Source of the DNA: Escherichia coli
Lineage (GTDB): Bacteria; Pseudomonadota; Gammaproteobacteria; Enterobacterales; Enterobacteriaceae
DNA length: 4,160 nt
Strand: one strand, 5' to 3'
NCBI RefSeq assembly: GCF_003334385.1
Contig: NZ_QOWN01000089.1
In this document: positions 1,000 to 1,529 of the stretch, piece after piece
How positions within the stretch are numbered: the stretch's first letter is position 1
Layout: each line of letters starts with the position of its first letter
Program-made: the position numbers and the translations under genes
Notes under the pieces: model-generated
Database searches by the model: none
What the model was told of the DNA's origin: nothing
Seen by the model: the letters and a program-made list of their open reading frames with translations, nothing else

Positions 1000-1113
1000 G
1001 CATGATGAATCCCCCTAAGCGGTGGGGCGACTGGCAAGGCTCCATTACGATGGTCACAATCCGCAGATTTAGTTTGCCAGGCTGAATCTACCGGGAGGCA
1101 CCCGGCATCATGC
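1000..1113 (+). ncRNA. Candidate structured RNA element, copy A (unknown function; possible sRNA or cis-acting leader/antitermination-type RNA)
   Basis: Closing helix P1 1000-1007/1106-1113 (GCATGATG/CATCATGC); hairpin Pa CCCC(1012-1015)/GGGG(1024-1027); helix Pb CTGGCAA(1031-1037)/TTGCCAG(1074-1080) with apical CCAT-TACG-ATGG hairpin (UACG tetraloop); 10-nt conserved linker GCTGAATCTA; hairpin Pc CCGGG-AGGCA-CCCGG (1091-1105). Helices are supported by compensatory changes relative to copy B. The coding frame is not conserved between copies. Confidence 0.45.
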
Positions 1114-1140
1114 ATAATGTGGAAAATTGGAAATGTATTC

Positions 1141-1174
1141 AGGCCTCTACGAATTTTAGTAGAGGCTTTTTTTT
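1141..1174 (+). terminator. Rho-independent terminator downstream of element A
   Basis: 8-bp stem GCCTCTAC(1143-1150)/GTAGAGGC(1159-1166), 8-nt loop, followed by eight consecutive T (1167-1174). Confidence 0.75.
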
Positions 1175-1178
1175 GAGT

Positions 1179-1205
1179 AAAAAAAGCCCGTCTATGGCAG
1201 CGGGC
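1179..1205 (-). terminator. Possible minus-strand intrinsic terminator (convergent partner of 1141..1174)
   Basis: On the minus strand: hairpin GCCCG/CGGGC (5 bp, 10-nt loop) followed by a 7-nt U-run (complement of A-run 1179-1185). Weaker than its unit-B counterpart. Confidence 0.35.
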
Positions 1206-1403
1206 AAGTATGCATGAGAATACATTTTTTATTATTTGCCTGAAAATAGTACCCTGAGGTTATTGTTGTTTTCAACAGGCTGATTTGTGTTCTGATCGGG
1301 GATGTGACAAGGAACATACGTTCTTATGTGAAAATGTTAAATTCTTCACATTTCAGTGAGTTGAGTGTTGATTTCGTTTTATCTTTTTTGTTAAAAAAGT
1401 ATT

Positions 1404-1529
1404 GCATGGTGAATCCCCCTGTGCGGTGGGGCGACTGGTGACAACAATTCATCATCCGTGATGACCCAGAAGAGATCGCGGGTTCAGTGGCACCGGGCTG
1501 AACTCACCGGGAGGCACCCGGCACCATGT
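1404..1529 (+). ncRNA. Candidate structured RNA element, copy B (paralog of 1000..1113)
   Basis: P1 1404-1411/1522-1529 (GCATGGTG/CACCATGT; the outer pair is G-U); Pa CCCC(1416-1419)/GGGG(1428-1431); Pb CTGGTG(1435-1440)/CACCGG(1491-1496) with internal U-G wobble, apical TCATCA-TCCG-TGATGA hairpin (1449-1464, UCCG tetraloop); linker GCTGAACTCA; Pc CCGGG-AGGCA-CCCGG (1507-1521). Confidence 0.45.

Follow-up and report, generated by a model that had tools for sequence, protein, structure and literature searches.

Two tandem STnc100-type sRNA genes in a prophage late region

The window analysed here, a stretch of 4,160 nucleotides from an Escherichia coli contig (NZ_QOWN01000089.1), lies in a prophage late region and carries two tandem prophage sRNA genes of the STnc100/PasD (EcOnc13/27) type, which are called copies A and B. 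Both gave full-length matches to the Rfam model RF02076 (STnc100, gathering score 47 bits), copy A at 970-1178 with 122.1 bits (E 2e-27) and copy B at 1374-1586 with 147.2 bits (E 7e-34). The two RNA copies with a conserved scaffold that an earlier note had proposed from the letters alone are thus real, and over the scaffold (P1a to Pb5' plus Pc3' to P1b) they share 81% identity. They are new members of the known STnc100 family, with an architecture that was previously undescribed. On one side the copies are flanked by phage tRNAs (three at 587-836, found with ARAGORN and the Rfam tRNA model) and on the other side by a NanS-p-type esterase gene, and the site is that of a late-operon leader. 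The following features were assigned:

1000-1176, plus strand: copy A sRNA, predicted transcript, based on the RF02076 match, the terminator scan, the PasD size and a -10-like box
1000-1113, 1114-1140 and 1141-1176, plus strand: 5' structured domain, linker and intrinsic terminator of copy A
1031-1037, plus strand: copy A Pb 5' strand CUGGCAA, whose partner in the predicted pseudoknot is the P3 loop UUGCCAG at 1074-1080
1038-1061, plus strand: copy A hypervariable insert (distal Pc arm), with the hairpin CCAU-UACG-AUGG at 1042-1053 and an unpaired UCACAAUC tail
1065-1089, plus strand: copy A P3 hairpin AGAUUUAG / CUGAAUCU, with an apical loop at 1073-1081 that contains the Pb 3' strand
1091-1105, plus strand: copy A P4 hairpin CCGGG-AGGCA-CCCGG, almost invariant family-wide
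1181-1238, minus strand: possible short convergent sRNA of the AsxR/AgvB type, a lead only, abutting the copy A terminator
1404-1582, plus strand: copy B sRNA, predicted transcript, based on the RF02076 match, the terminator scan and a -10-like box
1404-1529, 1530-1555 and 1556-1582, plus strand: 5' structured domain, linker and intrinsic terminator of copy B
1435-1440, plus strand: copy B Pb 5' strand CUGGUG, whose partner is the P3 loop CACCGG at 1491-1496
1441-1475, plus strand: copy B hypervariable insert (distal Pc arm), with an unpaired ACAACAAU, the hairpin UCAUCA-UCCG-UGAUGA at 1449-1464 and an unpaired CCCAGAAGAGA
1480-1505, plus strand: copy B P3 hairpin GGGUUCAG / CUGAACUC, with a loop at 1488-1497 that contains the Pb 3' strand
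1507-1521, plus strand: copy B P4 hairpin, with the same sequence as that of copy A
1587-1639, minus strand: candidate short convergent sRNA, abutting the copy B terminator and with its own terminator at 1614-1593 by the scan

In the terminator scan, copy A was matched at 1141-1168, followed by a U-run, and copy B at 1556-1575, followed by a T-run. No plus-strand promoter was listed for the window by a strict sigma-70 scan. Both copies have an extended -10-like sequence, TGnTAAAAA, 7 nt before P1 (TAAAAA at 987-992 with TG at 984-985 in copy A, and at 1392-1397 with TG at 1389-1390 in copy B), and 255 type 1 homologs have the consensus TAAAnT at this position. About 30 nt inside the Rfam STnc100 consensus are probably promoter, and the Rfam consensus structure is without Pb and Pc. 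The length of PasD, 172-173 nt, equals the span from the start of P1 to the U-run of the terminator. From this size and the -10-like box the 5' ends of copies A and B, and with the terminators their transcription boundaries, can be predicted, and by this homology the transcript would cover the variable segment, as the earlier interpretation presupposed. Hfq dependence of both copies would be expected from their homologs.

In copy B, a repeat of P1a further downstream (CACCAUG UU CAUGGUG, 1522-1542) offers the 3' strand of the closing stem P1 an alternative partner, as an expression platform of a riboswitch might. This pairing is adopted in the MFE structure of the full transcript and showed no link to the terminator; by eye, the repeat was seen in the E. 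coli subgroup only. A small ORF starting from an AUG in P1b was rejected, as the frames in copies A and B are unrelated and the AUG is absent from this place in most homologs.

On the minus strand, 1181-1238 gave sub-threshold Rfam matches to AsxR (20.7 bits, E 0.31) and AgvB (15.9 bits), and its local alignment with AsxR of phage Min27 scored 32 (shuffled maximum 24). The candidate at 1587-1639 aligned to the EPEC RIL-seq candidate E2348C_1409.E2348C_1408.IGR with a score of 77 (shuffled maximum 27), and its convergent arrangement with copy B is that of STnc100 and AsxR in Min27. The layout of STnc100 with a convergent short sRNA has been described (PMC4104026).

The homolog survey comprised 301 unique cores from about 20 Enterobacterales genera, and the full STnc100 scaffold was found in Enterobacterales only. 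Sequence matching the stretch 840-1800 was found in 1517 of the 5426 complete E. coli genomes, and element-bearing E. coli genomes have the element at a median of 2 and a maximum of 7 places. The core of copy B matches 350 phage records, among them most Stx phages, in which one STnc100-type copy follows stx2B at a distance of about 100 nt. At least 80% of the tandem stretch (840-1800) was present in only 6 of 1526 matching E. coli records, the other records listed matching the copy B part only or the copy A part only.

The core is predicted to be a five-helix junction locked by a pseudoknot

The structured domain has a length of 114-126 nt and its core is predicted, with support from covariation, to be a five-helix junction (P1, P2, Pc, P3 and P4) that is locked by Pb, a pseudoknot in which the 5' side of the Pc arm pairs with the apical loop of P3. 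In the homolog alignment 85.9% of the cells were paired, versus 73.3% in shuffles. The covariation score was 0.372 versus 0.158, was reached by 0 of 500 shuffles, and lay at 0.05-0.13 in slid controls. Double changes were observed at 6 of 8 pairs in P1, 3 of 5 in P2 and 8 of 8 in P3 (pair changes in P3 being counted over 44 homologs), and copy B carries compensatory changes relative to copy A at 3 of the 8 P3 pairs.

The Pb strands of both copies lie where the earlier note had put them, and for Pb as well as for Pc the observed energy was reached in 0 of 10,000 permutations. Over 68 distinct strand combinations, the mean duplex energy of Pb was -9.7 kcal/mol for cognate and -5.5 kcal/mol for non-cognate strands, and more than 50 distinct complementary strand pairs of Pb occur across homologs. 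Near-invariant features of the core are the P4 loop AGGCA, the junction AAU and a bulged A in P2, and the information content amounts to 1.5-2.0 bit per position in P2, P4 and inner P1. In a sample of homologs fetched by the 5' anchor only, the 18-mer around P4 was exact in 99 of 114 unique copies; the non-exact 18-mers carry 1-3 substitutions, one compensatory U-A pair among them.

The distal Pc arm is hypervariable and exchanged as a cassette

The distal Pc arm is the sole part without sequence conservation across homologs. The region from Pc5' to Pc3' carries 0-0.3 bit per position, and the 301 unique cores contained 236 distinct inserts in 112 classes, which confirms the expectation that the apical region would prove a hotspot of variation among further homologs. 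Inserts range from 14 to 59 nt, and many are short (14-20 nt) or consist mainly of a hairpin. The inserts of copy A (1038-1061) and copy B (1441-1475) are 42% identical, with shuffles at 44 +/- 4%, and are therefore unrelated. For the insert of copy A a single relative was found (copy 2 of locus L176, 74% identity), and the nearest of the 236 distinct inserts to that of copy B reached 63% identity, a value that random pairs also show. The intervals flagged before as unrelated, 1038-1073 and 1441-1490, were drawn too wide: this holds for the inserts, but the last 12-14 nt belong to the conserved scaffold and contain the Pc 3' strand and the P3 5' strand, which are homologous (CGCAGAUUUAGU versus CGCGGGUUCAGUGG).

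A UNCG hairpin had been pointed out in each copy. Both hairpins exist, but they are coincidental, no feature of the family and not more stable than shuffles: 85 of 200 (copy A) and 24 of 200 (copy B) shuffles fold at least as well, and in the nested MFE structure of the copy B core a competing pairing replaces the hairpin. Only 2 of the 19 tetraloops among 74 distinct inserts are UNCG, both of them those of the window copies, and the relative of the copy A insert has the loop AGCG. A small hairpin occurs in 82% of the inserts, with weak stability (mean z -0.7 versus shuffles), and some inserts are hairpin-free. The flanks of the inserts in the window are predicted to be unpaired with a probability of 0.7-1.0.

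Comparison of homologs shows that genes which are identical elsewhere have traded the distal Pc arm as a cassette. In 6 homolog pairs both flanks are at least 90% identical, yet Pb plus insert is less than 60% identical. The flanks of loci L142 and L240, for example, are 100% and 99% identical and the middle 38%, and between L041 and L164 Pb is kept and the insert alone is swapped. In 55 pairs the insert is at least 80% identical, often together with the whole core, and both flanks are less than 60% identical. Among relatives that share Pb and P3, insert identity is approximately bimodal (32 pairs at 0.6 or below, 226 pairs at 0.7 or above), and within classes the inserts diverged by 7.8% versus 4.7% for the scaffold, about 1.7-fold faster. 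The bimodality and the slow divergence within classes argue against a fully unconstrained spacer; the block-wise conservation could reflect recent recombination, not selection.

Among 324 loci with a parsed element, 59 locus strands carry 2-5 copies. Over the 53 distinct pairs of adjacent tandem copies outside the window, scaffold identity is about 90%, Pb is identical in 2 pairs, and an insert identity of at least 0.8 was found in 0 pairs (median 0.47). This lack of similar neighbours is the same pattern that random assembly from about 112 classes gives. In the window, the identity of promoter, linker and terminator between copies A and B is at or modestly above shuffle level. The view that the two genes are not a recent local duplication is borne out by this near-shuffle identity of the flanking modules, the rarity of the tandem stretch (6 of 1526 records) and the 0 of 53 neighbours with related inserts.

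Comparison with known phage RNAs

The STnc100 of Stx phages (EcOnc27/sRNA103, downstream of stx2B) shares the late-region site with the window copies. Both lie beside tRNAs of the ileZ-argN-argO type, upstream of an esterase gene and with a convergent short-sRNA partner, whereas their inserts, Pb, linkers and terminators differ. EcOnc27 is reported to be an Hfq-binding RNA whose overexpression increased the transcripts of fimZ and espA (PMC12711010); PasD1/2 and EcOnc27 were experimentally detected as Hfq-associated RNAs (PMC8550237, PMC4104026, PMC12711010). PasD1/PasD2 (EcOnc13) of EPEC/EHEC is an Hfq-dependent RNA of 172-173 nt (PMC8550237), and a common ancestry of PasD and STnc100 has been proposed by Zhu, Shabalina and Storz (2026). 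PasD, which was found here via its published probe sequence, sits in a lambdoid prophage. It shares the scaffold plan with P1, P2, a Pb pseudoknot (AAUGAUC/GAUCAUU), P3, a 3' linker and a terminator, but its scaffold is degenerate, with P4 partly lost and an RF02076 score of 37.7 bits, below the threshold. The predicted PasD seed UGUGAG is absent from the window linkers 1114-1140 and 1530-1555, so that the window copies are not PasD orthologs, and the similarity of these linkers to the 3' part of PasD is at shuffle level. Locus L122 of E2348/69 was seen to be an STnc100 copy truncated by ISEc13, not PasD2.

AgvB and AsxR (RF02702/RF02703) occupy the same moron site, convergent with STnc100-type genes, and have been shown experimentally to consist of a conserved part and a variable, target-selecting part (PMC4104026). 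They differ from STnc100 in their length of 51-60 nt, their variable 5' end and the lack of a multi-helix domain, and their models (thresholds 56 and 63 bits) gave no plus-strand match on the copies at E<=1.

In the c4 RNA of P1/P7 and the CI RNA of P4, small structured RNAs that prophages express in the lysogen, specificity between related phages is defined by short variable sequences displayed on a conserved fold. Their loops are complementary to targets in cis, within one operon. Unlike these, the window copies showed no cis complementarity, and neither sequence nor model similarity was found.

Type 2 copies of the element have no promoter and terminator of their own and are embedded in longer transcripts. 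Their positions in phage-operon leaders are comparable to those of HK022 put and lambda nut (boxA/boxB), and the boxB/N system gives an example of phage specificity being set by a variable hairpin. The put element of HK022 is a two-stem, V-shaped RNA of about 70 nt that binds the zinc-binding domain of RNA polymerase (PMC9378689). Membership in the put group was rejected, since STnc100 has five helices and a pseudoknot over 114-126 nt and its stand-alone copies terminate normally.

The sequences GGUGAAUCC...GCGG...CGACUG and CCGGGAGGCACCCGG recall a B12 core and B12 box and gave rise to the idea of a riboswitch. A cobalamin or other riboswitch was rejected, as cmscan of the isolated core at E<=10 gave STnc100 only. 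A tRNA-like element was likewise rejected (no tRNA model match on the copies with ARAGORN or Rfam), and the resemblance of the five-helix topology to class II tRNAs is a loose analogy only.

Role of the variable arm

According to the earlier note, the variable part may specify different targets, ligands or partners. This reading is supported in part, in that the arm is a hotspot and is exchanged as a module, whereas the only seed prediction published for the family, UGUGAG of PasD, whose motif statistics appear weak, lies in the 3' linker beside the terminator and outside the arm, and three complementarity tests gave values at chance. Complementarity of the inserts to their own phage neighbourhood showed no excess over non-cognate inserts, and a cis target was rejected because the longest exact match of Pb5' plus insert to the own locus, on either strand, followed the non-cognate distribution. 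Pairing with the convergent partner RNA was rejected as well (cognate -14.2 versus non-cognate -14.3 kcal/mol, median rank 0.52). The idea of a GcvB sponge came from the CA-rich ACAACAAU and UCACAAU. It was rejected, as the duplex energies with the verified R1 region lie in the composition-matched range (p about 0.22 for copy B and about 0.03, uncorrected, for copy A), and a CACAaCAY motif was found in 1 of 147 inserts versus 1.5 expected. Homology of the PasD seed region to the insert of one STnc100 class (...CUAUCCUUUCUGUGC GGGUUCAGG) was also rejected: 34 of 2000 shuffles reach the best score, which, as the best of 93 comparisons, is not significant.

Our best explanation, offered tentatively and with somewhat less than even confidence, is that the recombining distal Pc arm is the paralog-specific recognition module of STnc100/PasD sRNAs, its role in specificity being one of the parts that we infer. 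Copies A and B would then be independently transcribed tandem prophage sRNAs, 'moron' genes, each RNA comprising a structured domain at or near the predicted 5' end, an A/U-rich linker and an intrinsic terminator acting as a generic Hfq-binding module. The distal Pc arm projects from the near-invariant junction core, free in sequence and length, and moves between paralogs by recombination, alone or with Pb and P3, with the conserved scaffold supplying the crossover sites. Each co-resident copy would thereby obtain its own exposed surface for an RNA or protein partner, in the window presumably the unpaired ACAACAAU... of copy B and UCACAAUC of copy A, beside a short hairpin, and the core and the 3' module would be common to all copies. 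A precedent is provided by AgvB/AsxR, with a conserved 3' part and a variable, target-selecting 5' part (PMC4104026). The explanation is weakened by the location of the predicted PasD seed in the linker, the complementarity at chance and the short or hairpin-rich inserts, and also by the presence of the same variable arm in type 2 copies, for which one would be less inclined to expect a seed acting in trans.

A serious possibility, if a somewhat doubtful one, is that the arm is a tolerated peripheral extension with no sequence-specific role, comparable to variable hairpins in RNase P RNA, tmRNA or riboswitch aptamers. Its diversity would be due to drift, indels and phage mosaic recombination, and base-pairing would take place via the 3' linker. 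Such a permissive spacer would agree with the near-zero information and the lengths of 14-59 nt, with hairpins that are present in 82% of inserts but weak (mean z -0.7), with UNCG loops that are not conserved, with the PasD seed prediction in the linker, with the three negative complementarity tests (own locus, convergent partner and GcvB) and with type 2 copies in longer transcripts being equally variable in the arm. However, insert conservation within classes comes close to that of the scaffold (7.8% versus 4.7% divergence), and in the 55 pairs described above identical inserts outlast replaced promoters, linkers and terminators, so that conservation is lower in the 3' linker, which this reading takes as the functional part, than in the arm. 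Some classes, moreover, keep an identical unpaired stretch, e.g. UAUCCUUUCUGUGC, beside differing hairpins.

It is conceivable, although unlikely, that the core itself is an autonomous functional RNA domain with its own conserved partner in Enterobacterales, and that the exchangeable Pc arm and Pb set phage or paralog identity. Such a partner may be the transcription apparatus (with Nus factors), or else some other host protein or a small molecule. The core may head the stand-alone sRNAs and also act in cis in early-left leaders, beside a boxA-like motif.

Divergence of Pb and insert might instead be favoured for orthogonality among co-resident, highly expressed paralogs, where it would avoid Pb pairing in trans (misfolded dimers) and lower the recombination that collapses tandem arrays. 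We regard this as improbable. The median of 2 and up to 7 places in element-bearing E. coli genomes, the 59 locus strands with 2-5 copies and the adjacent copies that share Pb in 2 and the insert in 0 of 53 pairs are consistent with it, as are the more than 50 Pb strand pairs, although Pb is a purely internal pairing. Random assembly from many classes, however, yields the same non-redundancy, intramolecular folding should beat dimerisation, the identical scaffold blocks P2 and P4 (each more than 15 nt) are still open to recombination, and the variation of the insert, which lies outside Pb, is left unexplained.

Very unlikely is a hairpin read by a phage-specific protein or ligand, with the core docking on a common host or phage factor, in analogy to boxB hairpins matching their cognate N proteins. 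In its favour, the core is more complex and closer to invariant than an Hfq sRNA usually requires, a hairpin is found in most inserts, and type 2 copies lie in early-left operon leaders, with a boxA-like motif adjoining 15 of 37 compared with 22 of 261 type 1 copies. On the other hand, no gene co-varies or co-occurs with the element, whose neighbours are diverse, no Rfam riboswitch or protein-binding family was matched, and the hairpins are weak and absent from some inserts.

A put- or nut-like cis-acting transcription element, from which the stand-alone sRNAs would be derived or decayed and in which the arm would set the phage specificity of antitermination, is the most improbable alternative: the scaffold does occur in late and early-left operon leaders, the positions of known antitermination sites, with a boxA-like motif enriched upstream of type 2 copies, but its architecture is unlike HK022 put (two stems, about 70 nt; PMC9378689), homologs build up as distinct, terminated transcripts of about 172 nt, phage AH07 has a terminator-like hairpin before the element (read by eye), and 65% of type 1 copies have a terminator within about 100 nt downstream, which counts against an antiterminator, since at the type 1 site it would read through its own terminator.

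Significance

STnc100-type genes are common, with matches to the window stretch 840-1800 in 1517 of 5426 complete E. coli genomes and to the copy B core in most Stx phages, and variants in the promoter region of the stx2B-adjacent copy have recently been flagged as predictors of haemolytic uraemic syndrome. The conserved knotted five-helix core, the one freely exchangeable arm and the non-redundant arrays offer handles for experiments. If the core were an autonomous domain with its own partner, STnc100 would represent a new class of structured phage RNA, not an ordinary Hfq sRNA, and if the arm has no role in specificity, the conserved core would be the part to study. If the arm sets specificity, prophages would carry a combinatorial regulator kit that can be re-addressed by recombination.

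Genomic setting of the two RNAs

Copies A (1000-1176) and B (1404-1582), judged by their sequence, are members of the known sRNA family STnc100 (RF02076), whose relatives are PasD, EcOnc13 and EcOnc27. Positions 840-1800 of the window match, at 100% identity, the late region of a lambdoid prophage in E. coli DETEC-S792 (NZ_CP116067.1), and the RefSeq record annotates neither RNA.

Features of the window in order
DNA methyltransferase gene, 3' part
587-836, three phage tRNAs
970-1178, +, STnc100 (RF02076) match, copy A, 122.1 bits
1374-1586, +, STnc100 (RF02076) match, copy B, 147.2 bits
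1808-3790, SASA/NanS-p-type esterase gene
Lysis region, start

The first phage tRNA (587-662) was called tRNA-Met (CAT) by ARAGORN and tRNA-Ile by RefSeq; this is the usual ileZ-type CAT anticodon, read as Ile once lysidine-modified. A UUCG-capped terminator-like hairpin is located 3' of the tRNA cluster (850-867). Another terminator-like hairpin, CUGCGCAACUGCGCGG plus a U-run (1683-1705, +), lies ∼100 nt 5' of the esterase start codon; it is conserved, with a counterpart in the Stx2 phage Min27 and in E2348/69, and may act as an attenuator or mark where another small transcript ends.

A conserved junction with a pseudoknot

Both copies were parsed into the helices of a junction (P1, P2, Pc, P3 and P4), the pairing Pb and the insert, which is the distal Pc arm.

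Structural modules of copies A and B (+ strand)
P1 5' strand: A 1000-1007; B 1404-1411
P2: A 1011-1026; B 1415-1430
Pc 5' strand: A 1027-1030; B 1431-1434
Pb 5' strand: A 1031-1037; B 1435-1440
Insert: A 1038-1061; B 1441-1475
Pc 3' strand: A 1062-1064; B 1476-1479
P3: A 1065-1089; B 1480-1505
Pb 3' strand, within the P3 loop: A 1074-1080; B 1491-1496
P4: A 1091-1105; B 1507-1521
P1 3' strand: A 1106-1113; B 1522-1529
Linker: A 1114-1140; B 1530-1555
Terminator: A 1141-1176; B 1556-1582

The scaffolds of A and B are 81% identical and the inserts 42% (shuffles 44 ± 4%), which bears out the earlier proposal that the apical segments between the Pb strands are unrelated while the scaffold is conserved. 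The intervals flagged there do contain the variable insert, but their far ends are the Pc 3' and P3 5' strands, which are homologous and structurally conserved. UNCG hairpins are present at 1042-1053 in A and 1449-1464 in B, yet nothing can be read into them: shuffles folded equally well or better in 85/200 (A) and 24/200 (B) cases, UNCG accounted for 2 of the 19 tetraloops in 74 distinct inserts, and the sole relative of the copy A insert has the loop AGCG.

Homologs were collected from viral contigs with an exact P4-region 18-mer and with an independent 5' anchor in P1/P2, and from one genome per species with the 18-mer, yielding 301 unique cores. Since exact anchors were used for fetching, anchor conservation is partly by construction, and it was cross-checked with the 5' anchor set: among homologs found by the 5' anchor only, P4 and its AGGCA loop were nearly invariant (exact in 99/114), and P4 variants included a compensatory U-A pair. 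All occurrences of the full scaffold fell within Enterobacterales and were spread over about 20 genera.

In a MAFFT alignment of 44 diverse sequences, 85.9% of cells were paired in the proposed structure (73.3% in shuffles), and the covariation score of 0.372 (shuffles 0.158) was reached by 0/500 shuffles, with slid-partner controls at 0.05-0.13. Double changes were observed in 6/8 pairs of P1, 3/5 of P2, 2/3 of Pc and 8/8 of P3, and for P2 there are two alternatives, each fully compensated: CCCCC...GG(A)GGG and GCGGC...GC(A)CGC. Folding energy gives the window cores modest z-scores (-1.6 and -1.7), so the case for the fold rests on covariation.

The Pb pairing named in the earlier note joins the segment just 3' of the Pc 5' strand to the apical loop of P3, which makes Pb a pseudoknot. 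More than 50 different complementary strand pairs were found for it, e.g., CCAGUC/GACUGG, AGACUGACAAA/UUUGUCAGUCU and AAGGUUG/CAACCUU. Cognate Pb duplexes had a mean of -9.7 kcal/mol compared with -5.5 kcal/mol for non-cognate ones, a value as low being reached in 0/10,000 permutations, and the short helix Pc passed the same test.

A competing hairpin (1522-1542) can form in copy B, where the sequence of the P1 5' strand (CAUGGUG) recurs after the P1 3' strand (CACCAUG); it replaces P1 in the minimum free energy fold of the full transcript. Such repeats were seen in several E. coli relatives, and the hairpin may represent an alternative conformation or be left over from a tandem copy since lost.

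One arm varies by exchange

The suspicion that the apical region is a hotspot of variation was borne out among the homologs: from the first 2-4 nt past P2 to the last 2-3 nt ahead of P3 the alignment carries 0-0.3 bit per position, versus 1.5-2.0 in P2, P4 and inner P1. Inserts are 14-59 nt long, with a small hairpin in 82%, and the 301 cores contain 236 distinct inserts in 112 classes (70% single linkage). Among these 236, the copy A insert has one relative (74% identity) and the copy B insert none above the random range.

Judged from sequence comparisons, this variation is modular and not gradual. In 6 pairs, Pb plus insert is below 60% identity even though the 60 nt upstream and the 90 nt downstream are each at least 90% identical; L142 and L240 (fetched homologous loci) have a middle of 38% identity between flanks of 100% and 99%, and in L041 versus L164 the insert alone was replaced and Pb retained. 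Conversely, 55 pairs share inserts at least 80% identical, often with the whole core identical, between unrelated flanks. For relatives with common Pb and P3, the distribution of insert identities has roughly two modes. Within classes, the insert diverged by 7.8%, the 5' scaffold by 4.7% and P3 by 4.1%, the homologs being phylogenetically related and such rate comparisons confounded by recombination.

Tandem arrays of non-redundant copies

Of 324 loci with a parsed element, 59 locus strands carry 2-5 copies. Median insert identity across 53 distinct adjacent pairs was 0.47, no pair reached 0.8, and Pb was identical in 2, on scaffolds about 90% identical; the window pair is thus a typical array. 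Arrays of 3-5 copies (L176 with five, L169, L060, L213, L216, L226, L266, L303) have a spacing of about 250 nt, and Pb and insert differ from copy to copy.

The sequences argue, as suggested previously, that A and B are no recent local duplication, since their P1 and P3 differences are compensatory changes and promoter, linker and terminator identities are at or modestly above shuffle level. At least 80% of the tandem stretch is present in 6 of 1526 matching E. coli records; other listed records match the copy A part alone or the copy B part alone.

Gene types and predicted transcript ends

What is said here of transcription starts, Hfq binding and function derives throughout from homologs or from sequence. 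Type 1 copies, including those of the window, combine P2 in its CCCCC form with a TAAAnT -10-like consensus whose end lies ∼5 nt ahead of the P1 8-mer; 65% also show a terminator-like hairpin starting ∼27 nt past P1. RNA-seq and northern blots size PasD, a degenerate member of the family, at 172-173 nt, which equals the distance from P1 start to U-run and indicates that the structured domain starts at or near the 5' end. The Rfam boundary of RF02076 probably starts too far upstream; model positions 1-30 align to 970-999 and 1374-1403, which look like promoter (TG-extended -10 and spacer).

Type 2 copies, with the GCGGC form of P2, are located in early-left operons downstream of CI-like repressors and have their own promoter in 3% and terminator in 14%. 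A boxA-like motif lies just upstream in 15/37 of them versus 22/261 of type 1. Examples are L003-L031, L096, L298, L322 and similar loci, and L365 (Pantoea phage AH07, 3480-3640); the motif is UGCUCUU, sometimes with a hairpin, and P1 reaches ∼19 bp in some copies.

In L122 (E. coli E2348/69, 1410-1586), an ISEc13 (IS4-family) insertion removed P1 and the P2 5' strand of an STnc100 copy, which still scores 75.5 bits against the Rfam model.

Candidate convergent partners and phage contexts

The sequence suggests that each STnc100 copy may have its own short convergent partner.

1587-1639, -, sRNA-like unit convergent with copy B, terminator 1614-1593
1181-1238, -, possible short sRNA directly 3' of the copy A terminator

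The former is a clear candidate: it aligns with the RIL-seq candidate E2348C_1409.E2348C_1408.IGR from EPEC at a score of 77, where shuffles reach at most 27, and is positioned as AsxR is beside STnc100 in Stx2 phages. The latter resembles the anti-sRNAs AsxR and AgvB weakly, with Rfam scores of 20.7 and 15.9 bits, respectively, both below threshold.

In Klebsiella phage ST16-OXA48phi5.1, Q and a lambda-like pR'/tR' are followed by the element with its own promoter and terminators and then by the holin. In Min27 the element lies ∼100 nt past stx2B, convergent with an abutting AsxR, exactly the layout that Tree et al. (PMC4104026) described for the moron site, where the convergent sRNAs are EcOnc02/AsxR and EcOnc27. 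As summarized in PMC12711010, EcOnc27 (sRNA103) is Hfq-bound and its overexpression raises fimZ and espA transcripts. Two HUS-predictive variants of that study, 90 and 103 nt past stx2B, map by our own coordinate count to about 4487-4500 of L124 (Min27), in the extended -10 and pre-start spacer of the STnc100/EcOnc27 copy. Being outside the RNA body, they would point to expression level and not to target pairing.

Possible role of the arm and relation to known work

The earlier idea that the variable part specifies targets is only partly upheld. Complementarity of inserts to their own phage neighbourhood or to the convergent-strand RNA was no higher than for non-cognate inserts, and window inserts paired with GcvB no better than composition predicts. 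The sole published seed in the family (UGUGAG of PasD) sits in the 3' linker, and its motif statistics appear weak. In favour of the idea, within-class conservation of the arm nearly equals that of the scaffold, identical arms are kept while linkers and terminators get replaced, some insert classes retain an identical unpaired stretch, and structure prediction leaves the unpaired flanks of the window inserts accessible. Tentatively, we read the arm as a paralog-specific recognition module. A permissive spacer, which would suit the null searches but sits less easily with the persistence of identical arms, is an almost equally likely alternative; orthogonality between co-resident copies, a protein-specific hairpin and a cis role in transcription are minor ones.

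A link between PasD and STnc100 was drawn from an RNAalifold consensus (Zhu, Shabalina and Storz, 2026 preprint). In the searchable literature no description was found of the five-helix junction with the Pb pseudoknot and Pc, of variability confined essentially to one arm, of cassette exchange in the STnc100 family, of arrays of non-redundant copies or of an STnc100 domain inside early-operon leaders. The family itself is already known, and what is new is its anatomy at the family level.
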